64,000 nt of DNA from Microbotryum violaceum (lineage: Eukaryota). Both the position numbers and the translations under genes were made by a program. Positions 19,377 through 50,372 of the stretch are shown in pieces (the first letter of the stretch is position 1; each line of letters opens with the position of its first letter). The notes beneath the pieces were generated by a model. The model did not search any database. It worked only from the letters and a program-made list of their open reading frames with translations, and had not been told where the DNA came from. The stretch is from NCBI GenBank assembly GCA_001244265.2, contig LN717261.1, positions 2,557,591 through 2,621,590 on the forward strand. The letters run 5' to 3'.

Positions 19377-19977
19377 TCAAGCCTCGCCTAGCTTCTCGAG
19401 TTTTTCTTGAGCACTCTGCTTGGCCTCCTCGGACACGTTGGGGTTGTGGATCGCAGCTTTGAGACCGCCGGCGACGCGGTGCTGGTGCTGGTCCTCGTCT
19501 GCACCACTTCCACCACCTGCTCCACCACTTGCTCCTTCACCGACGGAGGCCGCGTGCGACTCCTCGAGTTTCTGAATCATCTCTTCGGCGCGCTGTGAGG
19601 ATGAGCGCAACATCGGGTCAGCACATTATCGATCGAGTGTCACTACTGTCAGGAAGAATGCGATCTGCCCATGTCCGAGAGAGAGGCTGAATGCATCTTG
19701 CGGGTCTCCTCGGGCAAGTTCTGCTTGTGGGCGGTGGCCTTGTAGCCACTGAGAACACGGACATAGTCCTTCTCGGCGACGACTGGGGATGTTCAAGACG
19801 CGGTAGATAGGTCAGCACGTTGACAAAATACCTCCGCCCTTCAAGCTCGAGATCGGTTAAACGACGCAAGACTGATACGCTGATGACTGCGAGGGCCCTT
19901 GAAGGGAACTGACTTTGGTCTCCGACCTTCTCCAGGACCTTGTCGCCCTTGACCAAAGTGGTGTGCTCCGCGGACAT
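19377..19977 (-). CDS. con-6: Conidiation protein 6 (Con-6) family hydrophilin with two repeats
   Basis: C-terminal RVAGGLKAAIHNPNVSEEAKQSAQEKL is a typical Con-6 repeat; N-terminal repeat KDYVRVLSGYKATAHKQNLPEETRKRAEEMIQKL. The intron 2 donor reads AT, not GT (see findings). Confidence 0.85.
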
Positions 19978-30111: not shown

Positions 30112-30856
30112 GATGAAGCCGTGCAATGCAAGTCACAAGTCTTTTAACCGAAGCCATCTTAATCGAAATCCATCGGGTGTTTTTCTTTTTGACATCGCGA
30201 GCTTGCCCCATCCGAATGAGACTAAATAGAATACGCGTAGGCCCTGAAAGTTCGGTTCTCAGCGGGTTGAATAGTTTGATGTGATCAGACGGCTACACCG
30301 CACATAATCTTGCGCGTGATACGCGTTCACGAATCGACTCCCTCTGGCCGGGCTCGAGAGCGAGACACGAGCGGCGCCCCACACGTGGTGGCGCGTGTCA
30401 CTTTTGGCGCGTGCAAGTCGGCGGCGGGTTTTCGAGGTGGCCCACGCTCACGCCTACTCTCCTCTCCACCACATCGCACCCACCAAGCTCAACCACTCCA
30501 ACGCACACAAACACCACTCAACTACTACCATACCATGCCCAACCAACCCAACCAGTTCGTTTCCGGTCATCACGTCGTCTAGACCAAGGGGGATGGTTCG
30601 TACGTCGTCAAGGACTACAACAACGTAGGTGGCCCATCTCCGCCCGCTCCACGTCTCGTACTCGTCATACCCGTGGCATAGGCCCGGGTTCTAACTTCTA
30701 GCCAGCAGTGCTGGAAGCCATCTATGATCAGGTGAGCTGACCGATGATGCAGGTTTCGTCCTGACAGGTCCAACAAGGCTACAATGGCTTGTACAATAAC
30801 CCTCAACACGGATCTGAAGGACGTGAGTCGTTTCCCACGTTGCGTGCCTGGGATCC

Positions 30857-33800
30857 AATTTAAAGTTTAAAATCATAATTTCCAGCTAGTCTTGTTCAAA
30901 GACAGAATCTATCAAACGCTAGATCCGCTGGACCACCATAGCATGTCATATCATACACCCATATTGTATATGGGCCATTGCCTCGCTGGGATTAGAACTG
31001 ATGCCCCCATTTCTCAGGGTTTACACCAGTTTTCCCTCCTCCCCCTTGGCTCCCGGCTCCTGAGGGTAGATGGGGCAAGCTTGCCACCCTCGCCTCCATC
31101 AGTGAGGTATACTACTCCATATTCTGTTGGAATGTCCACCACTTCCGCATGCGGCCGCCCCAAATTCTCCCAGTCCCTTTGATCAGCTCATGATGCCATG
31201 CCCGGTCCAGCCGCGTCCGCGATCGCTCGTCTAGAGTCCAGTAGATATCCGGTTTGGGTATCGTTGGCGTCGCAAACCACCACAAATGTGCCCTCACCAG
31301 TTTGGCAGCAAAGGTACATAGCTCCTGTATCTGCAGGTCAGTCCATCCTTGTTGCCGTGCCTCGAGTTCGCTTCGCGTAGCCCGATACAGTTCCTGACCA
31401 ACTTTGTCGCGAAGTTCTTGTCCCGATGGGCACTCTCCAAACGCGTGTTTCTCTGTTTCTTCCTCTGCTCCACATATCACACACTCCGGTGAGGTCCCCC
31501 GTCTCTCTGAACATCGCGAAGCAGTGGGCAGAACATGTGCCCGCATTTGGAGCTGTGTCTGTGCGGCATACGTTGACACTGCGCGAAGATATGGGTACTG
31601 CCCCGCTGAATGTCCGACATTCAATAGGAGTCGAACACTGTCGCCTGTCTTCTTCGGCAACGACTTCAGCTGCCAGTCTTCTTGAAGGTCGTAAATCTTC
31701 TTGCTGATATCGCCTTCCAGCCATTCGATGTTGTTGGCGGTCATTCTAGCGATCGTCCACTGCGGGAGAGCGAAGTCGGGGAAAGGCACAATGAGGTCAG
31801 GCTGTGAACGTCCCTTCTTAGCCGCTTCATCCGCCCTTTCATTTGCACGCGATGCGTCGTCTGTTCGTCCCGTATGAGCTTTCACATGTTGGATTTCGAT
31901 CGTGTGGTTCGTTGCGAGTAAACGTTCGAGCCATGTGTAGTGTGCAAACGCAACCCTCGGTTTCTTCGGTGCAACATCGCCCTGTCTGATCTTCTCGGCA
32001 AATCTGACCGATGTCAGATGATCTGCGAGAACCGGAATTGGTGTAGTAGCCCCGAAATTATGTGATTGTATAGTCAGTGCTGCCATAATCAGGGCTGTCA
32101 CTTCCGCTTGCATAATTGACGCGCCCGCGAACAAAGCTGCCCGGGCTTCCCAATTCGGTCCTACAACTGCTGCGGCCGCGGAAGCGAATCCCGTGGGCAG
32201 GACAATAAGTGAGCCATCTGTCGCCCAAATGTCTTGGGCCTGCGCTTGTCTCATTTTAAGTATGGGAAGAACTACACCCCGAAGCTGATCTTCGACTTCA
32301 GTTTTCCGCTCGGCTCTGCTTCGCAGGAGTTGGACTGGTCCCTCGGCCAAAGTCAGTTCGTCAAAGCGATCCGACCACTGCCGCACCAATCTGGTATTGG
32401 GGTCTAGTCACTCGGTGAAAAGGTCCGGTAGATCTTTCCGCGGTCCTTTCTTGAGCTCCCGTATATCTGTAAGCCGAGCTGGAAGCGCCGCCACTGCCCG
32501 CCGTAACTGTGGTTCGTTCCGCCGAGCCCCTCCTGTCTGAAGGTATGCATGCTCCGCACTGACCATCGAGGTAAGACGGCTTGATTGGTCGGTCTCCAGC
32601 ACTTGCAGCTTCCCGCATTGTTGTAAAGCACGAAGAGCCGTGTTCCACGTCTGGGGGACCTTTCGTTGCGAGTGCAGAAAGGACAGGGGCTTGGGGTCAA
32701 TGAAAGGAGAAATGCAGCCATGGTGTCGGCATTGGAGATCGGCCAGCGTGATCTTGGCCATCGTTGCAAACGCCGGAATGTGATGATTGAGGTCCCGTAA
32801 TAATCCGTCAACCGCCAGTGCCCCGTTTAGTCGCCATAGGCTGGTAAGCTCAAATCCAAACTTGGCGACCGGCAAGGTAACCAGCTTTGCCGTTGGTGTG
32901 AAGACCCATCCATAATACTCCTTTATCCGCTGTGCGACTATTTGATCAAGTCTGAGCGCATCCTCCGGTTGAATTGGGCACAATGCTAGCCTTGGCCTCA
33001 ACCTGCTAATTACTTGCTGTTCTATAAACCGTCGCAGTGCTGAGAGTGGAAGCCTCCTAGTCGATGTGCTAGGAAACCCGAACGAGCGCACAATACTCTC
33101 CAGCTGAGTGTATTGTCGATCTGGTGCTGCAAACGGCGTTTTGAGGAAGACATTTGCCAGGTCGACCGCAACCTGTCGTTCTCCGTGAGGAGTGTTGACC
33201 GTCACCCTTTCTATTGGCGCAACCAGTGAGTCAGTTTCTCCCAAAATAATAGCTCGAGTTTTCGTACCCCAGTCCGTTTGGGCTCCATACGCCTCTTGGA
33301 ATAGCTCCATGTAGAGCGTCATGGTAGCTAGCGTAGCTTCACTCTTCGCTAGCAGAATTGTGTCGTACATTGCGGCTACCTGTGTGACTTTGAGGGTAAG
33401 CTCGTCGGCCTTTGTGTGCGCGCGCCGCCGTGCTCCATTCTGCGTTGTGATGAGAAGAGGTTCATCGAAGACTTGCTCATCCAACCAGTAGGAGCCCATG
33501 GCCATCGCAAGTGAAAACGTGAACGGGTTTGGTGGGTCGCCTTGTTTCATTTGTCCGTCCACTTCAAAGGGGTCGGTCAGGCCGTATGGTGTCTTTATCA
33601 TGAACGAGCCGTGTGCTAACCGCGCTCGATCAAAAGCTTCCGCGTTGGGTCCAAAGCCGAAGAATTCGTAAGCGTCGTATCCGGCTTCGGCTCGCAGCAG
33701 ATCAAAACCCTTCTTTTGATCTCGAATAAGGCCGTAAATAGGGGTCTTTGCTCGAACAGCCCATGCTTCGAGTTGCGCAAGGAAGCTCGTGAGATCCCGC

Positions 33801-36800
33801 TGCTGGACGCCGCTCTGTACCGCGACCTGTGTCTCTGGTATCATGTGATGTTACATTGCATAAGCCTGTGATTGACGTGTGAACCATGCAGCCGCCGTAA
33901 CCGCAAGGAAATCTCCGAAACAAACCGCCCTGTAGTTACTCAATTGGGTGGAGAGACCCCGTTTTTGAACATCGGAAGGAGATAGTGGTCACGCAGCTTA
34001 TCAAAGTAGTTATTCACCAACACATAGTTCAAAAGGGCCAGGAACACGGATATAGCTCGGTCTCCCAGAATTGCCACGGTCCATTTCTCTCATCGATCCG
34101 GTCCGGGGGATGGCTCCCGATTTCCTCTACTGAGCAGCGTTCGGAGGTCACCGAGTGTCAAGGGCTTAGGCCACTCAAATTGGTCCTGCTGTGTTGCATT
34201 ACGGAAGTGTCGGGATCCTTCTGAGTTCATCCACGGCTTAGCCGTCACTGGTTGTTTGTCGGCCTTTTTGAATAAAGTGCTGAAATATTGCCTGAAGGTG
34301 GTACGTACTTCTGTTGGATCCGCGGTAGTATTTCCCCCCGCAGTTTCAACCGCTCGTGGCTGAACCAGTGTTGTCCGCGGCATGAGGATCCTCTTTATAG
34401 ATCCCCCATTAATGACCCTTTGGATTCGGAGATTGTCAGTCCGTTGTGTCATCTCTTTGCGTTCCCGCTTCTCCTGAGCATGTATTCTTTTGCAGAGTTG
34501 TCGACGCCAGCTCATCGCTGTCTCCAGGACTGCGCCTTCGGGCAGATACCAACCAGTGTGTCCTCTATCTTGTAGACGTTGTAGTGTTGCATTTTCTAAA
34601 GCCTCATGCATTTCGTTGAACCATCTCTGTACGTCCTGCTTGTGTTTAAGGATGTGGATAGAATTGGTATTGAGGGCATATATGTACCGGTTCATATGAT
34701 AACGGTCCTGAATCATTTGTCGCACTTCGGGGGATCCGACGAATTGGCGTTTGTTCATTGTTGGGCCCCGCCTCTCACCGAACACCTTCAGAGAAGTATC
34801 GACCAGTAGCAGAGAGAACTCTTTATAGGCAGTGTCCCAAACTTCCTGTGAAGTTACAGCCGCGTCTTCCGATATTTCTTTAAACACTGTACATTGGCAA
34901 CGCCGTCTTCCATGTCTTTCGTGAATCTTGGCCGAGTGTCGCTACCCCTCGGCGGAACTTTTATTCTTCTCGGTCCATCGTCGCCTACTTCGTCACTTAC
35001 GACGCAGAGCCCTGGAAACCATAACCTGCATCTAATTGGCCTGTGGTCAGTGGCCACAATTGGGCGTAAAGCCTCGATGTCCGCATTCCCTGTCGTTACG
35101 GAAGTCGCAAGCCGGTCTATGACGCTCGTGGTTTACGCGTTCCCGTAGAGCTTGTGTGTCCGACTTTCGGCGAGCGCCAGTGATTCCAACTCGTTCCACA
35201 CATCGTGGCCATCAGTTTGACGTAGGAAGCGGCAGTATTCGAGCGCAGTTGGTCGGAGTCGCGGAAGATTAGTCGCGGCTGTTTCCCGAGCGTCAAGTAC
35301 TGCATTGAAATCACCTACTACCGCCCAATTTGGTGGGCCGGTTCGTATGAGGTCTTGCATAGCGGTCCAGAAACCCGTGATGGCGTTGTCATCATTTTCT
35401 GTGTTGCGCGCATAACCTCCGTGTGGGCAGTAGGCGGACACGATACGAATTGGGACCATATCTGTGCCTTCCCTTGTTCGTACGAGTATGTCAGCGGCGG
35501 CGACTCGTCCTACCAGTGGTCCTTCAGTGATTATGAAGGACTTTAGTATCGGCAGGTTATTGCGGACCAGAAGGAGGGTTCCCCATTTCATTCCCGAACC
35601 AGCCCGGACGGAGGGTGTAAGGATCGGCTGGAAATCGGCTAAGTCAACCGGTAGCCGTGTGTCCGTTCGGAACTTGAGCTCATTTAGACTGACGACATGG
35701 TATTCTGAGTTGATTAAGGTCTGTTGCACTTGTTGGAGCTTCACGGGGTCTGCAAGTCCGTTCACGTTGAGGCTTGCGATAGAGATCGGAGTTGCTGCGT
35801 TAACACGATTTTTATCCAACACAAGGATGAGAAGGAGGATGATACTTCTTGTCGGGGCTGATATACTGTGAAAATTGATTGTTATTGCAAGAAGGAAATA
35901 TGTGCTGAGTGTATGGAGAAGATGAATGTGATTTTGTTTTCGGGGTTCGATGTCTTCGTTTATGGGTCCTGCGGCCATAAGCAGCACCTCATCAGACAGA
36001 GTTCGAGAAGAGAATAGGGATTTTGTTTGGGTACTGACAATAGACATTCCTTCCTCGACACGACGTTCTGTCCCCATGACACTTGAAACAAGACTCCCTT
36101 CCCCATCGGCGCCACGTGCGTGGTGAGTGAGACGTCCACGCTTACTGGGCGAGCCTCCAGGTTCATCGCGTTCTCTCGTCGGCGAGTTGTTCGTGGTGTT
36201 AGCTTCGGTTGGTGTCGAAGCATTGTTGGCCAGTCGTTGTTGATGAAAAATGGGGTTGGCGTTCTGAATGGCTAGGTTGGTTTGTTGTAGGGTTTGCTGA
36301 TACATAAGCTGCGCCTCCTTGACTGCCTGTTTCGCCACTTCGATCTCTTCTTTGATGTCGTAGTACTCCTGACTATTCTTGGGGTGGGAAAAAAGTTGCA
36401 TCCTGAGGTCACTGAGAACTTGGTTGGCCGAAAAGACCCCGAATTGTGCTTGTGACGTCATTTGCACGCCCGCCATTCCCGCGTAAAGTGATTGATTGTT
36501 CATCTGGAGCATGTGCAGCGCTTCCTGACATTCTTGGTGGCGTTGTTCAGCTCTGCGCCTGTCTTCGGAATAGATTGTTGCTATGGTGTGTATAGAGTCT
36601 TGGATGAGGTCGATGCGATTCTCAATCTGTCGTGAAGTTTCGGCGGCCAGTCCTTGCGAGTCGGATGTTACTCTATTGAAGCGGGCTGAGATGGCGTCTG
36701 CACGTTCGCTGTCGAGGCAGACCCTGATCGCTACGCGTTGGTCTCCATCGTGCCAGCAAGTCGCGTGTCGATCAAAAGCGGGCAGTGTGGGAACCATTTG

Positions 36801-39360
36801 GACCAACTACGACGCGAATGCGGACGTGGAGATCGAAAATCGGAAGACCGCTTTTTGATGTTGGCCCGTTCCCGTCGCGGGCTCGTAATCGGTAGTGACA
36901 ATGGCGCCCTGCGGTCGTGTAATGGGTTCCTGGGGGTAATCTTGTTCGTGTCGCTTCTCTGCTTCGGCAAGGCATTTCATTGTGTAGGTCGCGACACTTT
37001 GGGGGTCGCTGTTGGATTTTGCCCATAAGACCACGATCGCGTACGGCTCTTGCATCCCCGTTTAAAGACACCAGTGATAGTATGCTCGACCAGAAGCGGT
37101 TCCATCTTGTTGTTTGCTTGTGGAGCCAGGCGCGACATGGACCGAATTGGGATATTTTTATTGAGCCTTGTACTAAAAGTAGATCTGGCTTTTGACGCCG
37201 TGATCTTATCCACCATTGTGGAGCCTGCCAATCGAACTGCGACCAGGACCTTGCACTGATCATGCCGAGCGTTTGATTCAGTGGTGATGGAGATACAGGA
37301 TTCGGCCGGGACATCGAGCATGTCCTCGAAATGCTTGTCGATGTGTGCTTTCACCGCCTTGCGAAGCAGATCCTCAGGGGCTCGCTCGATGACTTCGAAA
37401 CCATCTTTGCCAGAGTGTCGTTGCGCGTCGAAAGCTAAGCGAACATATCTCACAACGTCATTTTCTTTTGTGTCCGTAAAATGAGCGAAAAGACGAGGCC
37501 ACACATTGCCATCTTCGTCCAGCAGTGGGGAATCGAACGTTGACGGGCCTGCTTTCTTCAAGAATTGAGCCATTAAGAGATGAACTTGAGGGTTGAATTG
37601 TGGCGGTACTTTTCTCCACTCACGGTAGAGATTAGCGTTGAGGAAATCATGTATTTTTGTGGTGAAACGGATGTCGTTTTCGGGCCCGACAATCTCGAAG
37701 TAGTCGGTATGGAGAGCCTTGTACCTTGATTGTGGAGGATCCGACAGGCCCGTAGGGTAGCCGATCTTGTGTGACTCGAAGAAGACTGGTTGGTCGTTGG
37801 GGCCAATCCCGGCCGTGGAGAGGAGGTCTTCCAGGGTGGCCTCAGCCGTTTGCTTCGATATGTCACCGGAAATTGCGGGAAGGTTAGAGATAATGAGCCT
37901 GTGCGGGAGTGGTTGAATGTTGCGGATCGGGGTACCGTCGTTCTCGACGAAAGGTTTTGGGACCATTGTAGGGTACGAGAAGCCGTATTGTGGAAAAGCA
38001 AGTGAGAGCAGAAGATGGAAAAGCGAGGCTCGAAGGAGGTGTAGCGTCTGCGGCCTTATTCCGGAAAAATGCGTGAATGTCGGAACCAAGTCACTTCCGC
38101 ATGATGACGTGATCGGTTGTTGGTATGGCGTGCTCGAGTTCGGGATCTGACCGGAGTAAGTTTTCTCAGGCAAGGCCGGGACATAAACACCGGGCCCAGC
38201 GCAGGGTATGGGGTTAGAAGAGACAGGGAAGTGAATTGTAACAGGTCTCAGGTTTGGGATTGGATGGGGAAATTGGCGTTCCTCAATAGATGGAAGTATC
38301 GTAGGCGTCGAGGAAGTATTGTAGGTGTCGAGTAAGTGCATGGTAGTATCAGGCAGAGTACTGGGCCAGCGAAGGTCAGCGGAAGAGTAAGTGTTCATTG
38401 AAAGCGTGCGGAGGACAGGGGCGGGTTGCAACAATTCTTTGCAATAGTTCGTCATTCTCTTATGTCGTGGATCGATAAAGGTGTTCACATTTTTACAGGC
38501 GAGTGAAAGGGGGGTCTCCTATCCTGTCCTTTTCCGGGCGCAAAAAAACAGTATCCGGTATTGGCTCCTTCTCTGGGTCGTTACGATGAGAAGTGGGTTG
38601 TAACATATCACTGTGAGGAATTCGATCGGAGTCCAAATGTAATAGAAATGAGGATTGCTGAGGTCATAGGGCTGAGTTAGTGGGTTGGTTGGGCAGTTCG
38701 GTAGTTGATTGGAAGCATTGCGTCCGTGCGATGTTCGTCGGATTAGGAGGAGCGGCTTGGAGGCTAGCGAGGTTTTGCAAAACAGGTGGTGAGGTATGGG
38801 GGGGGGGGGGGGGGGGTTCAGAGTAGTAAGATGGGTAGATATGGTGGGAAGCATAGCGTCTGTGCAGAGCTCGTCGGGTTAGGAGGAGCGGCTTGGAGGC
38901 TAGCGGGGTTATGTAATGCAGGTGGGGATGTGGGAAGAGGTATATGTGCTTGAAGAGAGGGTGAGTGAGCTCTAGGTCATAAGGTGGAGAGAGATAGCAC
39001 TCGTCATTTCTAGAGGAGGTTCTGTCTACACCATCCGTATGGGAGCCTCCATCGTCGCGTTGCCTAGATCGGCAATGGGGGTGGGAAGGCACCATGGCTT
39101 GCAACCATGTGTGAGAGAACGACCATTCGATTACTTTAGGAACGATCGAATGCTGTTGATATGAATTCCTGAGCCGGCGGGTGGCCCAAGGGGTGTCGGA
39201 GGCGGGGGCATTGTCGATGCGGACGCACAGACTGCGAGAACACGTGTGACGTGGCGCGGGATGTGCATTTGTTAAGGTTGTTGACGGAGGTGGAGGTTAA
39301 CTTAAGGTAAGGTAACGGTACGGTACGGTACGCGGTACGGTACGGTAAGGTAAGGTAAGG
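30857..39360 (-). mobile_element. Non-LTR retrotransposon (LINE): ORF1-like region, APE endonuclease, RT, RNase H and zinc finger; degenerate
   Basis: APE motifs SIASLNVNG, SLNE, GDFN, IDR, TDH (~35780-35040); RT PGPD, RDQKKGFD, QGDP, AAMYD (~34110-33350); RNase H TDGS...AEV...HVKAH...NERADEAAK; CVIC...H...C finger; several in-frame stops and frameshifts; ends approximate. Confidence 0.93.
38711..38910. repeat. Two ~64-bp direct repeats flanking a G19 tract in the LINE 5' region
   Basis: ggaagcattgcgtccgtgc...aggaggagcggcttggaggctagcgaggtt at 38711-38774 recurs at 38847-38910; poly-G at ~38798-38816. Confidence 0.85.
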
Positions 39361-39361
39361 T
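39303..39361. repeat. (GGTAA/GGTAC)n pentamer array at the LINE 5' junction
   Basis: taaggtaaggtaacggtacggtacggtacgcggtacggtacggtaaggtaaggtaagg. Confidence 0.9.
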
Positions 39362-39759
39362 TCTCTTGTGAGCCCGAGAGCTCACGCGCTCCTGATATCT
39401 ATCGGATCCGTCAGTACGCCCAAGCGCAAAGTCACCAGTTGTCGCAACAATACTACCAGCGACATCAACAAGGTGGTAACTCGTCCGGTCGCAAGTGAGG
39501 AATCCCCATTCGTTGCGCTTCGTTGCGACCGGCGCAAGGTCGACCAAGTCATACGTTCAACTCGCACGTGGTGAGGGTTTTGAAGGTCAGGGAGTGTCGT
39601 TTTCAAATGAATTTGATTGAAGTGCAGTGAAATCAGTTGATTCGATCATTTACTCGTGTGTTCACCTGAGAGGGGACGTGCTGGAATAGAGAGCATTTCC
39701 GGGTGACCCCTCCTTGAACAGGAGAGCTTCGGCGGTCAAGCCAACTCAATGTCACGGTG

Positions 39760-42700
39760 TGGGGCTGAGAAGGCGGAATCTGGTGCACACTGTCTCTGAA
39801 TGAGAGTAAAGGTGGGCCGATCCAGAGACCCGAGAAATGAGTTCCGCACTATGCCCGTTCACTACTCGGTGTTGGTGCTCAGGAGCCCCAAGTCCGTAAT
39901 CGATTTCCGGAACCGCGTGCTGCAGCTGGGCCTGGAGATCCTTGCCAGAAGTGTTTCCTCACCTCATCGGTATTAAAGTTCAGGAGAAGCAACGGAATAG
40001 GGTCGGATACGCTTAGGCCGAGGGAAATAGGGAGAAGGTGATGCGCGTGATGGCGTCATTGCCGCGGTTAGCTGCATCGCCATTAAACATGGAGCTGCGC
40101 TGTGAAAGGCGAACCGCGTTACAGAGTCCATTCTTTCTATAAGTCGTCTGGTATGATGACACAAGAGAGCTTAGCTCATGCTTTAGCTCACGACCACCGC
40201 ATAGCATGGAGCAGCAGCAATGACGACGCACATACCTCGAAATAGGGGTGTTGGCCCGTCCACGCGGACGTGAACTCGGAAGCGCCGAGAGCAAGCCGTG
40301 GGAGTCGCTAGTTCAGTAGACACTAGTCGGGCAAACGAACCCGCAAATCACTCGCTTCCCCGACGCACGCCATTCAATGCTCTCACCTCTCTCAAGACCC
40401 AGCAAGCTTTCTTCTACCTCTCTACAACCCTCAGCCAAATGCGACCACCGCAAGTTTCCTTCCCCAGCTCACCTGCTCAACTGAACTGCCCAAGATGCCC
40501 AAGAATCAACACGTCTCCGGCAACAACGTCATCCAGACGAAGGGTGACGGAAACCAGGTCACGAAAGACTACAACGCTGTAAGTCACTGCCGACTATTCG
40601 AGCCACTTCAATTCGACCGACAGAGTGGGCTAGGCTCATGCTTTGCCCACCTTTGCTGGCCTCACACCAGGTCATCAATGGCTAGAAAGACCTTTTAAAT
40701 AACCTCCAACAACCTCAACGAAAAGACGTGAGTCTTTGAGCAGCTTGACGAGAACTTTCGGGGAGCTCGGGCACGAGCTCATTCTAAATCCACTGCATTG
40801 CCGCATTAGAATACCACTCCCGTCATGTCACTTCAATCGAGATGACCACAACTGTCGCTATATCACGAGACGCTCAAGCCATCAGAGGTATCACACCACG
40901 TCAGCCCTACAGAGGCGTTGAGGTACGAGACTGTCAGCTTCCATGAACTCGCCGTCAGTATGACTGGCTGGCTCATCGAGCTGCCATGCGATGTCATCAT
41001 GAATCCCCCGGCACGTCAAGCTCATAACGTGCACCTCCAGTATCGACCTGTAGATTCCGAAGGGAGTTGTCCTCGACGTCCTGCCATCAGTTCCACGCTC
41101 ATACAGAGTCAAGGCCTCACCGTCCATAACCTCTGTACTGTCAAGCCTCGACTAGTCGCGCGATTGCAGTGGAGCTTTGGAACTAAGGCGTGTCCCCAGT
41201 CATGCTGCCAAAGGGCACGCCTGCTAGGGCACTCTCAGTGAATCCCAGGCAGTAGGAGCTCGCAAACTGTCTACGTCGCACCCAGACTCGCTTCTCGTGC
41301 TGTAACATGGCGTGTCCCCAGTCATGCTGCTAAAGGGCACGCCTGCGGTGCTAGTAGGCCTTGTCTCACTGAATCCCAGATAATGAAAGCTTGCAACCTG
41401 TCTACGTCTCACCCATACTCGCTTTCCGTGCTGTAACATCAATCGTCCAAATTTCTACCTCGTGACCGTTGTGGGCACAGGCACATTCGCATCCTGTCTG
41501 TAGTAGCACTGACAAAAGCGAGCGAGTGTCCTGCGACTGGCATGCTAGTCGCTGGACAATTTATTCCCACGGCCAATTGCACCATCCATGTCCAAGTATC
41601 AGTCACGTGAGATTCCAGTCTTGTTCATCGGCGATGGAACGCTCCTCGCTATCTTCGATGGCGTTGTCAGGTTTAAGAGGACTGCTTCGATCGGCATACC
41701 TGTGAGCGGTCCCGAGATACTCGTCAGTGACTGGGCGATATTCAGTCGTTACCTGCCAGACATATCCAACGACATCCGGTCTCGCCGCAATCTCATCGTA
41801 CTGCGCGATCTTCAAGTCAAGTACAAGGGCGGCGACGTTTAGTCGTGGGGTATGAGCTACTGGTGTCCCTGCCAGTGCCCTGGAAAAACTGGTTTCTGCT
41901 TCTGGTTGATCACAGTACGCTCAGCGTTTAGGCCAACCCAAAACAACGGAGACAGGTCTCGGGGCTGAGACGGCGGCCGGGATTCTCGGTGCACACCTCG
42001 TGACTCCCTCTGAATGAGTCACGGTAGTTGACCAATCCAGGAAAAGCCGGATATAAGCTGAAAAATGATTCTCATCCTGCCTGTTCGCTACTTGGTGTTA
42101 ATGCTCAGGAGCCCCGAGTCCGCGGTCGATTTCCGGAACCGCGTGCTGCAGCTGGGCCCGGAGATCCTTGCTAGAAGTGTTTCCTCACCTCATCGGTATT
42201 AAAGTTCAGGAGAAGCAACGGAATAGGGTCGGATACGCTTAGGCCGACGGAGATAGGGGGAAGGTGATGCGCGTGATAGCGTCATTGCCGCGGTTAGCTG
42301 CATCGCCATTGAACATGGAGCTGCGCTGTGAAAGGCGAACCGCGTTACAGAGTCCATTCTTTCTATAAGTCGTCTGGTATGATGACACAAGAGAGTTTAG
42401 CTCATGCTTTAGCTCACGACCACCGCATAGCATGGAGCAGCAGCAATGACGACGCACATACCTCGAAATAGGGGTGTTGCCCCGTCCACGCGGACGTGAA
42501 CTCGGAAGCGCCGAGAGCAAGCCGTGGGAGTCGCTAATTCAGTAGACACCAAACGGGCAAATGAACGGGCAAATTACTCGGTTACCCCACGCACGCCATT
42601 CAATGCTCTCACCTCTCGAGAAACAGCAGGCTTTCTTCTTCCTCCCTACAACCCTCAGCCAAACGCGACGCCCTCAAGTTTCACTCCCCCGTCCACCCGC

Positions 42701-43060
42701 TCAACTGAACCGCCCAAAATGCCCAAGAATCAACACGTCTCCGGGAACAACGTCATCCAGACGAAGGGTGATGGAAACCAGGTCACGAAAGACTACAACG
42801 CTGTAAGTCACTGCCGACTATTCGAGCCACTTCAATCCGACCGACAGCGTGGTCTAGGCTCATGCTTTGCCCACCCTTGCTGGCCTCACAACAGGTCCTC
42901 AATGGCTATAATGGCCTCTACAACAACCCCCAACAACCTCAGCAGAAGGACGTGAGTCTTTGAGCAGCTTGACGAGAACTTTCGAGGGACCTTCGGTTCG
43001 AGCTCATGGTGTCCCGCACTGGGAACACTCCTGTCGGCTTCTGGTTGATCACAGTACGCT
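39760..43060 (+). repeat. Tandem segmental duplication (period ~2.2 kb) carrying Con-6-like copies B and C
   Basis: ~39880-40760 is nearly identical to ~42105-42990; ORF-track pairs 39973/42199 and 40013/42239 differ by a few residues. Confidence 0.93.
40495..41940 (+). pseudogene. Con-6-like microgene copy B
   Basis: Exon1 40495-40578 encodes the same peptide as copy C; exon2 40671-40727 has TAG at 40683; ~1.1-kb insert in intron 2; exon3 from 41916 diverges after YAQ. Confidence 0.85.
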
Positions 43061-43138
43061 CAAGCTCAAGCTCATCAACTCGGTCAACAGTACCACGCGC
43101 AGCACCAAGGAAGCAACTCGGCTCAGGGAAAGCGTTGA
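42719..43138 (+). CDS. Con-6-like microprotein copy C, intact, 74 aa, Q/N/G/Y/H-rich
   Basis: Exons 42719-42802, 42895-42951 and 43055-43138 with phase-0 GT-AG introns: MPKNQHVSGNNVIQTKGDGNQVTKDYNAVLNGYNGLYNNPQQPQQKDYAQAQAHQLGQQYHAQHQGSNSAQGKR*. Confidence 0.88.
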
Positions 43139-45398
43139 AAGATGAGCTTTGGCTGCGTCGATATTCGGAGTTGGGTTAAGTGGGCGTCTCAGACGTGGCA
43201 TCGACGAATGTGAAGAGGAGTCAGGGGTTTCGTTTCCTAAGCTTTTGTCCGGTCCCTTGCTGCAATGGACCGGGTTTGACTTTCGAAATATTGACAACAT
43301 AATCTCTCGACGTTGGGGCCTGCGGTATAGCGTATTTGCTCGCTGAAGGGTGACCAAGGACTGTGCACCAGTGGTGATCATGTCGTGCGCGCACTCGAGA
43401 ATCGCCGAGCGCGACGACTGGGCGAGCGTTTTCGCTGTGTCATTGCACACACCTTCCGATTTAGCATCTTGCTGCACCAAAACACCACATGCAATGTTTA
43501 ATCAATCGAAAAGCCCTTTTTGTGGCCAATCCAAAATTTCATTTTTGACTACAGCTCCACCTATGGGCGAGCTGTTTGTAGACGAGCCGTAGGCGGGTGA
43601 GGCTCTACGGTTTGGGCCCGCGCAAGGGGAACAAAACCCCTGACTCGTTTTCGTCCGTTCTCCCCACATTTCCTCTCTCTGTCCTCGGCTTCCGACTTTC
43701 TCCTCGATCGAGAGCGCTCTCTTTCGGACTTTGCGCCGCGGACCCCTCCTCTCCATTGGAAAATACGTCTTTCACATTCCACAACCAGTCTTCCAGCAAC
43801 TTCCAATTTGTTCCAACTCGGCCTGTGATACCGGAAGCACGATCCTCGAAAAAGAGGCCAACGCGACTTGTCGTAGCTTTTGTTCTATGGGCTTCAAAAA
43901 GGTTTTATGGAGGGGGGTATAAAAGGACGGAAGAGGACGAACGCCTCTCTCCCTCCTACCATTCACTGCTTCTGCAAGCTCGCTCCAAAAGCCCGCGGTT
44001 GTCCTTCCCCCTTACCTTCCTCGAGAACGCTAGGTCCTGTACCTCGTCCTCGAACTACACCTCCACAGCTTGCGGGTTGTCTTGTCCCCCAAGACCTCTG
44101 ACGAGCCAGCATGCTTCTCCCAGTCGCCTCGCACACCACCTCATCGCTCTGCCAGCCCAACTACACTCGGGTGAGTACCCTCATGTTTATCACTGGGTCC
44201 CTGCTGCCGTGAATCATGGCAGTACCGCTTGCTCTCGAGCCCCGATCATACGTGGTGGCCAACCTGCTTGTTCGACGGCGCTCTTCACCCGCCCGCCTGC
44301 CTAATCGGTAATCGGTAATCGGTAAAGAAAATGGGTTAATGCCGCGAGCAAATGGTGCAATTACAATTTACGCGCGCGCGTTTACCCTTCAATCAATGAA
44401 GACCGTAAGCGTGCCTCTCTTTTCTCCAATCTCCGATCCCACAACGCCGACGTCTTTCTCCTGAGCGAAACTGGCCGACCTTTCCCGGAAAGGGTGGCCC
44501 AGTGGACGCAGGAGTGCCAAGACTTGAGCTCTCCGCTCTTTTCACTCCTTTCAACAATACTGCCATACTATGGAAGAGCGACTCCGTGGTCATTACTATT
44601 GATCCCGAGTCGCCTCCCAACACTCAGCTTCGTGCTTCTTTCTCTTTCCCCGGACCGAGTCACCGACGCCACCTTTCTTGTGGGTGATTCAAAAGTCCGG
44701 GTTGTATCAATATACCGAAGCTTGACCTATCTACCCCGGTACTAGTAAGGTGCAAAGTTCACTTACAAATGGTGCATTCTTCGCGCAAGCTGGTGCGTTT
44801 GCTCCCGAAAAAAGGTGCGTTTACCAATTAAGGATGGTGCATCTACCACGTAGCGGGGCAATCCGCTGTATCTCGTATAGTATGCCATGTATCACCCTGA
44901 AACTTGACGAGCCCTCTTACATGACCACGAAGTACGTCCACCCTTGGTAAGAAGCACTCTCACCCGGATCTCATGTAGTTGAAAATCGTGCCCGTACTCG
45001 GGCCCCCGCCCACGGGCTCGACGAAGACCCCCAGGCATCGAATATTCACTCTTTCTTTTACTGGGTACTACAACGGGTCAGGTGATCCGATCATGCGTGT
45101 CAGTGCCCAAGCAAAGTAGGCCCTGCATCCACTGCACAGCCGCGCATCGCCGCCAGCGACCTTGCTCAATTTTGTCTGGGTGCACGTAGCCTGCTTGACC
45201 CGTCGCGTCGCGCCCAACGCCTACTTCTACTTTCTACTCATGTTCACCGCGCCACGCCAGTTCCTGCCATCCGTTGCCATCGACCGATACTCGCCTTGGT
45301 TCCAAAACTCGTTTCGCATACGTCATCTCCAGTCATCAGATGAATGCAACGCTCCAGAATAAGGGTGGCCCCCCCGCATTGGGACCCAACCAATCGAC

Positions 45399-47320
45399 AT
45401 GACCAGCCCACCTGCACGTGGCACCTCCCAGATATCCTCGACTACGTCTACCCAGAAGAAAGACTTGGGCCAGCGGGAACCCGATATCATTGACCAATCT
45501 CCCTCAGTGACGCACTCCAATCAAATCTCAATGACTCCTGAAAGCTGCTCCGACGATGTCGACTCGAACGCCGACTCAGACCCCGCCGTCGACGACTCCG
45601 AAGCCAGCTCCTCCGATGGCGGCGAAGAAGCCATGGATCGACTGCGCCAAGTCGTCAACCTCCTCGAAAATTGTGCACCCAACCATATACCGCTGGAGTA
45701 TGACACAATGCAAGCCAAACGTCAAGCGATCATGTCGTCGAACCGCCTCTGGTCGGCGGAAGAGAAAGCCGTCTACGGGCAATGGCCGCTGATTCATGGC
45801 GACCGAAGGAAAGCAGATGAATGGACGCTCAAGGACACCATACAATTCTCAAGCTTCCTTTGTACATGGCTACCGAAGTATGTCGATACTGGTTCCAAGC
45901 ATAAGCAGTCACTGATGGCTAGTTGAAGTTGCTGATTAGGACGCAAAACTGACGAAATTATTCCTCACCGATCCTCCTCCTATCCTTCATTGGCGAAACC
46001 AACCGGAACAGGAGCACGAATAAATAGCCTGCAAATAGATTTTGCCACTTGTTTGAAGGTGAGAGGGAGAAGCGACTTGTGTGGATCCCGCTTACCTGAT
46101 AGGCTGACTATAATCCGCCGAGCTGATGATGATCGCAGAACATCGTTGCTTTCCTCACGGCTCGGGCAGAAGGACCCATCCCTCGTGTCACCGGAGGCAG
46201 TGACCGGCCCACAATCCCGTACGCAGAGCGGGACCGAGTGATCGTGAAACCGCGAGCACCGAAGAAGGTAGACTTGATGCCTAGGTCAAAGTTTATGCGA
46301 CAGCCCGATGGCAACGCTTGCGGCGTCTTCATTCGTCGAACGATGGAAAATTGGTCGCGGCGGTTGCGTTTCAGTCTGAATTAGACTGGAGCTGGAGCCC
46401 AACTCAAGCCACTACAGGACAACTTATATGCTGACCAACGCGCATACATGTCAGACGTTGTTATTCATGCGCGCTTGCGGTGTGACACGGAGTTGGAAGC
46501 AAATTCTGACCCCCCTCCCCTCGATTTGCGAGAGGCGACTGGAGCTCCTCCGCCGGTTCCCGGTCAGTCATTCTACTGTTGATCTCAACGATCTGATCTT
46601 AGTGATAGTTCAAGCTTGCTTGATATTGAGGCCGACACTTGTGTATGCAGAATCTGTACCACTCGCGCTCAAGGAGAGTTCGCCGGAGCTCGAAGAGAAG
46701 CCCTTGGGATCGCCCGGCATTGAAATTTCCGCGCCTACCCTTGTTCTGATTGACCCTTCGATCGGCACAATGTACACCTCTGAGTCCAATCCCGACGCTC
46801 AATGTACTGCTCCGTTGATTTCGCGAAGCCAGCGGCCCAACCCGGCACCATCAATTGCAACGATTGGTTCGATGCCAGATGCGCCGCCGATGAGAATCCA
46901 GAGGGTCGTAATGTTCGACCCTACCAACTCTCTGCCGGTGTCTGAGGCACTCGAGGTCGTTGCTTGCTTGCCAAGGTATCAAACACGTACATTGGCCGTT
47001 CGGTCAATTGCCGCTATATCCACAAGCACCCTAAGCCCTCGCCGATTCAAGCGCAAGAGGGAAGAATCCTTTTTCAACGCTGCGCGGCTTCGCTGAAGCT
47101 GAAGCCTTGCACTCAATGCCGGGCTCGCAAGATGAATCTGATGTTGGAGTCAATTCAAGGTATGGGCTCTCCCAACCTGCATCGGATCCTTCCTTGTCAC
47201 CAGAACACTCACATTGGTCATGGTTCATTTGGAGCAGCTGCAAGAAGAGGAATGAGGTCGTCGATCCTAAGCCGTGCCATTATGAGTAGAACGGAAGGAT
47301 GTATATATATAATGATATAA
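45399..47320 (+). CDS. Probable spliced cargo gene of unknown function inside the TIR element
   Basis: 175-aa ATG ORF with acidic low-complexity N-terminus ending near a GTATGT donor, then exon-like open segments up to the 46428-47096 ORF; no motif recognised. Confidence 0.4.
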
Positions 47321-47491
47321 TGATCGCGGCTAGTGACATTTGCGAGAACACTTGGTGATGTGCTACTAGCTTTTTTAGGACAGGTTCACGGATGGTTTGG
47401 AAAGGCAGTCAATGATCTTCCTTGTCCGTCAAGTTGCTGAGGCAGGAAATACGGCGAGGAATGCTATACAAAGTGTCGCACCCCATATGGT

Positions 47492-47692
47492 CACATCCAG
47501 CAGCTCCGACATCCAGCAGCTCCGACATCCAGCAGCTCCGACATCCAGCAGCTCCGACATCCAGCAGCTCCGACATCCAGCAGCTCCGACATCCAGCAGC
47601 TCCGACATCCAGCATCCAGCAGCTCCGACATCCAGCAGCTACGACATCCAGCAGCTCCGACATCCAGCAGCTCCGACATCCAGCAGCTCCGA
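47492..47692. repeat. 16-bp minisatellite (GACATCCAGCAGCTCC) x ~12
   Basis: Direct tandem copies with one shortened unit; explains the repetitive ORFs on both strands. Confidence 0.95.
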
Positions 47693-48093
47693 GATGATTG
47701 ATCATCTTAGTCATTGTATTGCAGCTTAGGGTGGGGGGGGGGGGGGGGGGGGGCTACTGGCTCGGAACGTCGACTTGTCGAACTACGAGTCCTCTTCTTT
47801 CACTCGATCTGGAAGCTCTGTCGCCGTCGCCGATTCTCGTCGGATCTTTTGGAACCGATCACCGAACGTGACGGACTTCGAGGGGCTTCGAGCCTCTATT
47901 CAGGAGTCCAAGGGTCGCCTAGTGTTTCTGTAAGCCACCACTGCAAAGGGGGTCTTAGTGGGTATGGTTGATCCTGGTTTAGGGTCAATGAATCCTACAC
48001 TACTAGCTTCTGCCAGTGTGCGTAACAGCATTCCCTCCGACTTTTCCGAAGATTTCTAGTTATGCGGTTAATGAAGTCTATCAAATAAAAAAA

Positions 48094-49339
48094 GAGAAAA
48101 GGACAAAAATGCCCTCGAAAGATAGCGAAAGGACGAAAATGCCCTCGCTTCTTTTCATGAGGACAGAAATGCCCTTCTCTAAGGGACCAAAATGCCCTCG
48201 GATTCTCGACTTCTGTAATACTTGGTATATCAGCTCATAACCAAGAGGGTAGCTTCTTGTAGTCGTTGTGATCAGCGCCGTATACTCAGAATCCCCAGAG
48301 ATGCCGTGAGAATTCATATATCACGGTTGCAAAGTCAGGGCCCTATCGCGACTGAAGCGAGTCCAAGTCGAAAGCGAGCGATGAGTATAGACCGAGTGAA
48401 TTCCATATGAAAAAGGCCAGCAGTAGAAGCATTGACAGTCTTGACGCCTTATGCTCAGATTCAAATGGTCTATCTATAACTCGGTTGTGTCCGGGGCCTT
48501 TGCAGAGACCACAGATCGTGTCGCGCTTGGACCTCTCGTCCGCACCCCGGATCCTGCGTTTGATCGGACGTATAGGCTTGGAGAGATGTGACGGAATGAT
48601 AATGACACCCTCTTCTTCGCCAGTTGAGTCACTATCGTCCACTTCACCATGACCTCATGACGCTCACGAGGAAGACGATGCAGCTTCCATTCGGCCCGAG
48701 ATGGAACAGGTTGGAGCGGTGTCGCGTAAGTCTGCTCTTGCTGTCGCCGGTGTGCAGCAGCTATCGGTGACTGTGGGCTTCATTAAAGACAATGATGGTC
48801 CAAACACTGCATTCTCCTTTGGAGACAGCAGTGGCAGAGAAGGAGCACGGAGGATCTTGGACACTCTTGCTCACGACGCGTGTCAGACTTGCGAATGTCG
48901 AACTGAAACTGGTGATCAAGCGCATATTGATGGCCCGCATCTGTGAGCTCCTTCTAGAGACTTCCCCCTCCCTGAAAGAATGTTCCATTGTCGAAAGTCG
49001 GTGGTGACTTCGGGGTCGGGGCGAGAATGCGGAAGGTGGCCAACGTCGATTCGCGAACTCGCGCGCCTCAACGCGTCGACGATCGATGAGGCCCCCTGCC
49101 TTTGCGACCGTGATAACTGAATTCTCACGGCATCTCTGGGGATTCTGAGTAAACGGCGCTGATCACAACGCTACAAGAAGCTACCCTCGTGGTTATGAGC
49201 TGATATACCAAGTATTACAGAAGTCGAGAATCCGAGGGCATTTTGGTCCCTTAGAGAAGGGCATTTCTGTCCTCATGAAAAGAAGCGAGGGCATTTTCGT
49301 CCTTTCGCTATCTTTCGAGGGCATTTTTGTCCTTTTTTC
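48094..49339 (-). mobile_element. Non-autonomous Mutator-like element (MULE) nested in the TIR element
   Basis: ~230-bp near-identical TIRs (48094-48317 and ~49117-49339) with G...C ends, TAAAAAAA on both flanks (8-9 bp TSD), and an internal remnant CGLCKGPGHNR like the C-terminal zinc knuckle of MuDR transposases. Confidence 0.88.
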
Positions 49340-49732
49340 TAAAAAAAAAAAAAAAATCGGTCCGGGGTTCCGGACGATGGCCGCTGGGACGAGAGCTGGG
49401 GTGCAGGCACGATTTCCCCCGATTTCCAACGAAATTCCTTTTTCTGTTTTTCCTTTTTATTTTGTCGCATCGAATATAAGCGCGCGACAAAAGAGAAAAA
49501 AAGACGAGATGGGAATAAGTTTTTTCGGGAGCAAACGCACCAACTTGCGCGAAGAATGCATCATTTGTAAGTGAACTTTGCACCTTACTTACCGGGGTAT
49601 GGGTCAAGCTTCGGAGGTAAACGCGCGCGCGTAATTTGTAAATGCATCATTGACTCGCGGCATTATGTATGGATGCTCCTCTCGTTTCTCCTTTGTGCCT
49701 TCCCGCCCTCGGTTCCTCCGCCGACGCTCCCA

Positions 49733-50372
49733 ATGGCTCGTCGACCCCCCAAGGCCCAAATCGTGAGGGAGTACTACAACGGCAAGTTCGTCATTCAGGT
49801 CAGGGATGATGGTACTGTCACGGAGAAGAACTACAACAATGTGAGTCGGGATGATGATTGCCAACAACGTGAACTAATAAACAAGCCGGTCGGGCCTTAT
49901 GGGACTGGTTATAGTGAGAATGAGAATTTGAATTCCAGCTAGTCTACAAAGAGACGACCCTTATCGGGCGCTGGACCACATTAACTGGGCTATCGTCTCT
50001 GACCTGACCTACGACTTCCACCGCTGGTTATAGTGAGACGCCGGGGAGTCGGCGTGTTCGGCCGGAGAGAGGGTTCACACGCTGTCCCTGCCTCGGGCTT
50101 CACAACAATTCTGAGTCGCTCTCCTCATCGCCCATATAAAAACTAACTCATTCTTCCCTACGTTGTTGATTCCTTCATACAGGTCATCCAAGGCCTGAAC
50201 GGCCTTTACAAGAACCCCAAGTTCCCCGAGATGAGAGATGTCAGTACCGAGCCGGCCGAGCCCCTTGCCTATAAATGGAGAAATTCTTATCTTCTCTTCG
50301 TTGTCCCCGGCCCTACAGGACGCTCAAGATCGGATGTACCGCCTCGCGATGGACTATTATCGATACCACTAG
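49733..50372 (+). CDS. Con-6-like microprotein copy D, intact, 72 aa
   Basis: Exons 49733-49840, 50183-50239 and 50319-50372: MARRPPKAQIVREYYNGKFVIQVRDDGTVTEKNYNNVIQGLNGLYKNPKFPEMRDDAQDRMYRLAMDYYRYH*; same intron positions and 57-nt middle exon as copy C. Confidence 0.85.
49920..50023 (-). mobile_element. 104-bp 5'-truncated LINE/SINE-like insertion with 15-bp TSD
   Basis: CTGGTTATAGTGAGA is duplicated at 49905-49919 and 50024-50038; the insert shares TTCCAGCTAGTCT and CGCTGGACCAC with the LINE 3' end at 30880-30937. Confidence 0.85.

Follow-up and report, generated by a model that had tools for sequence, protein, structure and literature searches.

The 64,000-nt window analyzed here (Microbotryum violaceum, assembly GCA_001244265.2, contig LN717261.1, positions 2,557,591 to 2,621,590 of the forward strand) shows a fungal base composition, with 54.7% G+C, and harbors four copies of a small three-exon gene, referred to below as A, B, C and D, in the neighborhood of a two-repeat Con-6 gene, MVLG_05358. 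A previous reading of this DNA, made without database searches (the sequence-only reading), had proposed that the four copies form a single family, probably missed by gene callers, related to the N-terminal half of Con-6 and subject to birth-and-death evolution. All four were recovered on the forward strand where that reading had placed them, C and D being intact and A and B broken (Table 1). After splicing, C and D display open frames encoding products of 74 and 72 amino acids, respectively; their four introns are all phase 0 and bounded by GT..AG, the second donor of D being GTCAGT, and the middle exon measures 55-57 nt across the copies. Besides the spliced models, tblastn searches of the 64-kb window with individual exons hold the copies together as one gene family: C exon 1 retrieves A with an E-value of 5.2e-8, C exon 2 retrieves A and D (both 4.4e-5) as well as B (1.1e-4), and D exon 1 retrieves C (0.003). 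Exon-wise values of 5e-8 to 1e-4 rule out a chance similarity among the copies, and no further family copy was found by tblastn in the window.

Table 1. Positions of the exons of the four family copies and of neighboring features in the 64,000-nt window.
Feature	Position	Strand	Remarks
Copy A, exon 1 (pseudogene)	30535-30624	+	in-frame TAG at 30580-30582, codon 16
Copy A, exon 2	30768-30822	+	55 nt; loss of 2 nt, frameshift
Copy A, exon 3, intact	39415-39498	+	acceptor CAG, stop TGA; tblastn E 5e-8 against C exon 3
Copy B, exon 1 (pseudogene)	40495-40578	+	intact; 2 synonymous and 0 non-synonymous differences from C
Copy B, exon 2	40671-40727	+	TAG at 40683-40685; 77% identity to C exon 2, flanks 89-98%
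Copy B, exon-3 stub	41916-41923	+	homology to C stops after 8 nt; insertion of ~1.1 kb in intron 2
Copy C, exon 1	42719-42802	+	MVLG_05353; spliced model equals annotated protein; RNA contigs join here
Copy C, exon 2	42895-42951	+	RNA joints 42802>42895 and 42951>43055
Copy C, exon 3 with stop	43055-43138	+	RNA contigs run from 42650 to 43309
Copy D, exon 1	49733-49840	+	MVLG_05352; spliced model equals annotated protein
Copy D, exon 2	50183-50239	+	gene model
Copy D, exon 3 with stop TAG	50319-50372	+	gene model
Open reading frames (ORFs) of a long interspersed nuclear element (LINE)-type retrotransposon in copy A intron 2	31112-39296	-	Pfam domains and ORF list
Con-6 gene MVLG_05358, two-repeat parent type	19377-19977	-	annotated product 99 aa (P0056)
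MVLG_05358, exon 1	19914-19977	-	reading frames
MVLG_05358, exon 2	start 19782; canonical end 19697, annotated end 19763	-	reading frames, annotation
MVLG_05358, exon 3	19377-19592	-	reading frames

The spliced product of C turned out to be identical to MVLG_05353, a 74-aa protein (P0001) of Microbotryum lychnidis-dioicae p1A1 Lamole retrieved by a word-indexed search with the read-through of C exon 1, and that of D to MVLG_05352 (P0053) of the same species. Three other Microbotryum species have annotated orthologues: M. saponariae contains D, C and A types (g03712, g03713 and g03717, respectively) and a Con-6 gene (g03721), M. intermedium contains a D, a short C-like and an A type (BQ2448_6917, 6918 and 6919) and a Con-6 gene (BQ2448_6927), and in M. 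silenes-dioicae the C and D types are annotated. Hence, the expectation that the family had been missed by gene callers has to be dropped, both intact copies matching annotated proteins letter for letter. According to excerpts of PMC4469406, RNA-seq data entered the building and updating of the M. lychnidis-dioicae gene set through PASA, which fits the calling of such tiny three-exon models. The annotation labels of family members read only 'hypothetical' or 'UNKNOWN', and searches with the locus tags, with Microbotryum plus con-6, and with Con-6 or PF10346 plus microprotein, which left subscription papers and supplements outside, yielded no paper tying these genes to Con-6.

Splicing of C was analyzed using Logan contigs of four coded runs (X1, X6, X9 and X10), which were compared with the C locus (42450-43450) only. 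In the RNA-derived runs X6 and X9, belonging to two studies, contigs that span at least 42650-43309 join 42802 to 42895 and 42951 to 43055, skipping 92 and 103 nt that are both delimited by GT..AG, with zero depth in both introns; both junctions that the sequence-only reading had predicted are thus present exactly. X1 and X10 are DNA-like, their contigs covering the introns, and carry C-like as well as B-like forms, so that the B pseudogene is common to relatives. An X6 variant contig of exon 1 was considered as a transcript of B and discarded, as B differs from C at 8 sites in the span and the contig at 3. In X1, a relative 95-99% alike, 9 nt are missing from a C-like contig where a context of 9-nt tandem repeats overlaps the C start codon (window positions 42712-42720), and the gene start in this organism may differ or be lost.

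Concerning expression, MVLG_05353 is listed as 'UNKNOWN' in Table 1 of PMC13608869 (2026), as far as the excerpts of that paper go, with a log2 fold change of 14.93 (false discovery rate 2.6e-168) in infected male stage-8 buds relative to mated cells. Teliosporogenesis occupies the interval from floral stage 8 to stage 11, teliospores appearing at stage 9 (excerpts of PMC5919739), which places stage-8 buds within teliosporogenesis; the induction of C is measured against mated cells. PMC13608869 also lists, in the part considered here, Asp18Asp of MVLG_05353 as a site of adenosine-to-inosine (A-to-I) editing that occurs in the mated stage only. For the GAT codon of Asp18 to change synonymously, the substitution must be T>C at 42772, and an X6 contig (depth 43.9 of 118.4) shows this T>C alongside G>C at 42745 and A>G at 42718. 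The same variants occur in the DNA-like runs, all three in X10 and two, without 42718 A>G, in X1. The site looks less like editing than like a genomic allele, possibly one belonging to the haplotype of the other mating type; MVLG_05343 and MVLG_05391 stand in the same table, as excerpted, and may hint at a heterozygous region.

Copy A is killed by a stop codon, a frameshift and a LINE. Its third exon, overlooked by the sequence-only reading, lies 8.6 kb downstream of exon 2 and is assigned to this copy since 26 of its 27 residues are identical to the C-terminus of an intact A-type orthologue (P0042). The two exons are separated by a LINE insertion of ~8.5 kb displaying Pfam matches to Exo_endo_phos (30.4 bits, 35136-36806), RNase_H (35.3 bits) and zf-RVT (21.5 bits, the latter two within 31115-32407), the middle ORFs giving no Pfam reverse-transcriptase match at E <= 1e-3. 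The element as a whole (31112-39362, reverse strand) consists of mostly open ORFs of 431, 480, 283, 557, 513 and 210 codons, and a (TAAGG)n run marks its 5' end (39303-39361). Copy B is a decayed tandem duplicate of C, the duplication having a spacing of ~2.2 kb and 92% identity over 932 aligned bases, and DNA run X10 presents the same form of B, with 1144 letters inserted. Decay extends beyond this window: at least five shortened or degenerate copies are annotated in M. saponariae (P0002, P0003, P0004, P0045 and P0057; the shortened ones include g03714, g03715/25, g03726 and g03730), which, together with the fate of A and B, bears out the proposed birth-and-death evolution.

The A, C and D types each have orthologues across species, so that the three types predate those species splits. 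Protein identity amounts to 70.8% for D of M. lychnidis-dioicae and M. intermedium, to 89.5% for A of M. saponariae and M. intermedium, and to 82.5% for the Con-6 proteins of species carrying A, C and D orthologues. All eight full-length sequences are open and share 18 invariant columns.

The proteins comprise 72-79 residues and are very hydrophilic, the grand average of hydropathy (GRAVY) ranging from -1.09 in D to -1.46 in C and reaching -1.5 overall. Asn plus Gln make up 29-34% of the A and C types. Hydrophilins are defined by a glycine content above 6% and high hydrophilicity; glycine amounts to 10.5-12.2% in the A and C types (GRAVY -1.40 to -1.46), to 5.6% in D and to 4.2% in the M. intermedium D orthologue. 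The longest hydrophobic run is of 3 residues, which makes a signal peptide or a membrane span unlikely, and five of the six members measured are free of cysteine.

Con-6 proteins are among the most strongly spore-induced proteins of fungi, with an elusive molecular role. The relation of the family to the N-terminal half of the local Con-6, as proposed from the sequence, is corroborated by BLASTP, shuffling and profile analyses, in which the C and D types (P0001 and P0006) were compared with the Con-6 of M. saponariae (P0007) and a second Microbotryum Con-6 (P0009). BLASTP aligns C with P0007 at an E-value of 1e-6 (13 of 39 positions identical, ungapped) over a span that includes the strand-rich N-terminal stretch, which only two proteins, both from Microbotryum, possess among 32 aligned Con-6, and D with P0007 at 3e-4 over 49 columns that reach through the second helix. 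The Smith-Waterman score of P0001 and P0007 is 74, compared with 30.3 +/- 5.7 for shuffles, none of 5000 reaching it; composition-preserving shuffles reach the actual score in 0/5000 cases for P0001-P0009, 1/5000 for P0006-P0007 and 0/5000 for P0006-P0009, and in 0/1000 for P0006 against each of five out of six Con-6 proteins from outside Microbotryum (ascomycete or rust). A family profile run against 1,835,955,588 proteins yields nine matches at E <= 1e-3, of which five are Microbotryum family members and two are metagenomic proteins (9.1e-10 and 8.2e-7) with eight Pfam Con-6 domains each. Our own Con-6 hidden Markov model (HMM), run unfiltered, assigns 15.9 bits to the D type, the best of 2000 shuffles obtaining 7.6; in the underlying 32-protein alignment, the 25-residue cut leaves 27 rows for repeat 1 and 32 for repeat 2. 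Finally, intron 2 lies in phase 0 between the same aligned pair of residues in the family and in the Con-6 gene, in agreement with the shared position claimed earlier.

Predicted structures point in the same direction. For D, AlphaFold2 gives a model with a predicted local distance difference test (pLDDT) of 89.1, composed of strands 10-15, 20-24 and 29-32 followed by helices 34-45 and 52-71, with the N-P motif (47-48) located in the loop between the predicted helices, i.e. a Con-6-like helix-loop-helix as far as a prediction can tell. For the Con-6 P0007, the model shows strands 5-10, 13-18 and 21-27, helices 28-40 and 46-67 and a second hairpin (82-99/105-117), block means of pLDDT being 84-91 over residues 11-60. 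D and the N-terminal half of Con-6 are thus predicted to adopt the same three-strand, two-helix topology. Searching the D model against the PDB with Foldseek retrieved nothing at E <= 1e-3, the ESM Atlas had no usable match for D, and a wide VIA-align comparison gave a best Z of 4.7, mostly to helical hairpins. The model thus cannot be assigned to a named fold, which does not establish a new one.

A number of observations weigh against a Con-6 origin or a Con-6-like role. None of the eight full-length members matches Pfam PF10346 at E <= 10 (nor did any of four in a separate run), with local exon 3 and P0007 as positive controls at 69.2 and 95 bits; in our own HMM the C type scores 6.2 bits, inside the shuffle range (best 10.0 of 2000), and neither this value nor that of D reaches the Pfam gathering cut-off of 25 bits, so a significant match to the Pfam Con-6 profile, the check named by the sequence-only reading, failed to appear. 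Aligning the family with the Con-6 alignment through hhalign gives E-values of 5.2e-4 and 1.2e-3 at probabilities of only 31% and 19.5%. The two remaining matches of the family profile, a Bartonella YadA-like adhesin and a Ralstonia XopAD/skwp protein (4.3e-7 and 2.0e-5), are spurious, which implies that profile E-values on repeat proteins are inflated and have to be discounted. Intron 1 is not shared, that of Con-6 being phase 1 and situated nine codons upstream. The Con-6 signature G-G-[HLY]-K-A ... N-P-N-[VT]-S-E-E-A-K is absent from the family, which keeps the G, the [YL], the N-P and the later A, with N-G replacing K-A and [QK]-x-P-x-x replacing N-V-S-E-E, and which has a single repeat instead of the two-repeat architecture. 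The isoelectric point is ~9.4, versus 5-5.8 for Con-6, and tyrosine content 7-11%, versus 0-2%. The fold model of D was derived from eight aligned sequences and lacks a solved counterpart; the Nei-Gojobori ratios of 0.13 (A vs C) and 0.42 (D vs C) are rough, as dS between paralogues is saturated; and the only expression figure is that of C, in infected buds versus mated cells rather than in spores.

Weighing both sides, common descent of the family and Con-6 is well supported, and membership in Pfam Con-6 as defined is not. What stands of the sequence-only interpretation is therefore the family itself, its relation to Con-6, the second intron and the turnover, while the hidden status and the Pfam match do not. 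Compared with Con-6 (PF10346; con-6 in Neurospora crassa, conF in Aspergillus nidulans), the family likewise consists of small, very hydrophilic, non-secreted fungal proteins, keeps the G-x(6)-N-P ... A-x(3)-[LM]-x(2)-L repeat spacing, and is connected to it by pairwise similarity, a predicted helical hairpin, an intron site and gene adjacency. It differs in having one repeat, in failing Pfam, in being basic and tyrosine-rich where Con-6 is acidic and tyrosine-poor, and in the fusion of its repeat to a three-strand N-terminal unit, found in only those two of the 32 aligned Con-6. Hydrophilins and late embryogenesis abundant (LEA)-like proteins resemble the glycine-rich, strongly hydrophilic A and C types, whereas D, with its low glycine content, is predicted to be compactly folded (pLDDT 89) rather than disordered.

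The reading we favor, and consider probable as a whole, is that of a Microbotryum-specific, Con-6-derived family with a protective or dormancy-related role in spores. Its first part, the origin and the family, can be held with considerable confidence; the spore-protective or dormancy role, drawn by analogy, is a tentative suggestion that may well prove wrong. The 5' half of a Con-6-type gene, with the N-terminal strands, repeat 1 and a portion of the linker, would have been duplicated and would then have diverged past the reach of the Pfam Con-6 model, leaving three old paralogue types, A, C and D, beside Con-6 in M. intermedium, M. saponariae and M. lychnidis-dioicae; in the predicted fold, three strands and then a helical hairpin, the hairpin would correspond to a degenerate Con-6 repeat. 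The proteins would act within the fungal cells during flower growth and teliospore formation, being abundant in the bud stage, and would have a part in spore protection or dormancy like the one attributed to Con-6/ConF. In this respect, excerpts of PMC4169166 describe con-6 and con-10 as induced in conidiation and by light, with single mutants lacking a phenotype, and the A. nidulans conF conJ double mutant as accumulating glycerol and erythritol, germinating late and resisting drying better.

Were the family instead an orphan of Microbotryum, unrelated to Con-6 and similar to it by chance, as may happen between short hydrophilic sequences with much N, G, K and P, the lack of Pfam matches in all eight members, the C type inside the HMM shuffle range, the hhalign probability of 19-31%, the two unrelated bacterial repeat proteins among the matches and the unshared intron 1 would all find an explanation. 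Such an orphan is nevertheless unlikely, given that 0/5000 shuffles reach the scores against Microbotryum Con-6 (the single P0006-P0007 shuffle apart), that two of the four non-family matches among 1.84 billion proteins are Con-6 proteins, and that intron 2 position and phase, linkage to Con-6 in three species and the order of predicted elements coincide. The very strong induction of C in infected buds, in a family that is genus-specific, fast-evolving, multi-copy and prone to gene death, as effector families often are, could also be read as the mark of host-directed effectors that would exit the fungus through non-classical secretion and have their target in the flower; descent from an intracellular spore-protein family, a sequence with neither a hydrophobic N-terminus nor a hydrophobic run above 3 residues, and the rarity of cysteine (five of six members have none) make this quite unlikely.

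Small single-domain derivatives of a larger neighbor gene are, on the other hand, the defining origin of plant microProteins as excerpts of PMC9638782 present them, and by analogy the family could comprise microProtein-type modulators, i.e. truncated single-domain copies that would dock on Con-6 or on each other and adjust its activity. Both share an origin by truncating duplication, a mass below 20 kDa and a single domain; plant microProteins are, however, defined in the same excerpts by binding and titrating parent-type proteins, whereas docking is here purely proposed and Con-6 proteins are not known to oligomerise, so we regard this option as very unlikely. Finally, two of the four copies are dead in the window and at least five annotated ones are degenerate in M. 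saponariae, as would be found in a functionless, decaying family in which C and D have not yet been hit and are transcribed via a retained Con-6-type promoter. This last alternative appears highly improbable: the A, C and D frames stay open and keep their length in species whose proteins differ by 10-29%, non-synonymous change is well below synonymous change, and the C transcript is among the most strongly regulated of the PMC13608869 table, as excerpted.

In the neighboring Con-6 gene, PF10346 matches exon 3 with 69.2 bits and exon 2 with 18.8 bits. Judging from the Con-6 proteins of M. saponariae and M. intermedium, exon 2 should give way to intron 2 after E-T-R-K. At this place MVLG_05358 reads ATGCAT, with no GT or GC donor; the annotated 99-aa product joins K-D-Y to R-A-E-E-M via an upstream GTCCGT and thereby skips the 22-residue core of the first Con-6 repeat. 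It contains one Pfam Con-6 stretch, versus two in the M. saponariae Con-6, and the M. silenes-dioicae Con-6 annotation begins only inside exon 3. One could imagine that strand-strand-strand-helix-helix represents a folded state in which the Con-6 repeat has so far not been described, and that the small proteins serve teliospore formation as free-standing 'half Con-6' modules, C and D supplying in trans the half that MVLG_05358 would have lost through the change in its splice donor, or docking on proteins of the Con-6 type as microProtein-like modulators of spore dormancy; we deem this improbable.

Some further features surround the copies. D intron 1 (342 nt) contains an exact 15-nt direct repeat (49905-49919 and 50024-50038) around ~104 nt that resembles a target-site duplication at a small insertion; the piece in between has no match to the LINE of copy A, and a 13-nt identity between this intron and the sequence 3' of A exon 2 was rejected, its score of 26 lying below the shuffle maximum of 37. 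Just upstream of D, an inverted repeat (48093-48340 and 49094-49340), with arms of 170 nt (99% complementary) plus 77 nt (94%) and ~750-900 nt between them, may be a foldback or terminal-inverted-repeat element. The segment 70-210 nt upstream of the D ATG recurs inverted near 44.3-44.8 kb (44337-44813 vs 49520-49665), beyond the 932-base B/C stretch, and no D-like coding remnant was found there. No 9-mer is common to three or more of the upstream regions of A, C, D and Con-6. A 16-nt unit is repeated ~12 times in tandem at 47493-47692 (TRF score 330), and a run of 25 G comes after it (47729-47753).

As for its meaning, this is a modest evolutionary finding and not a new kind of system. The locus would represent a datable truncating duplication, through which half a gene gave rise to a family of small proteins whose birth and death are visible in a 20-kb stretch. 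One of its members shows massive induction in flowers infected by a model plant-castrating (anther-smut) fungus, and two genes that already figure as 'UNKNOWN' or 'hypothetical' in Microbotryum expression tables may thus receive a name and a testable hypothesis.

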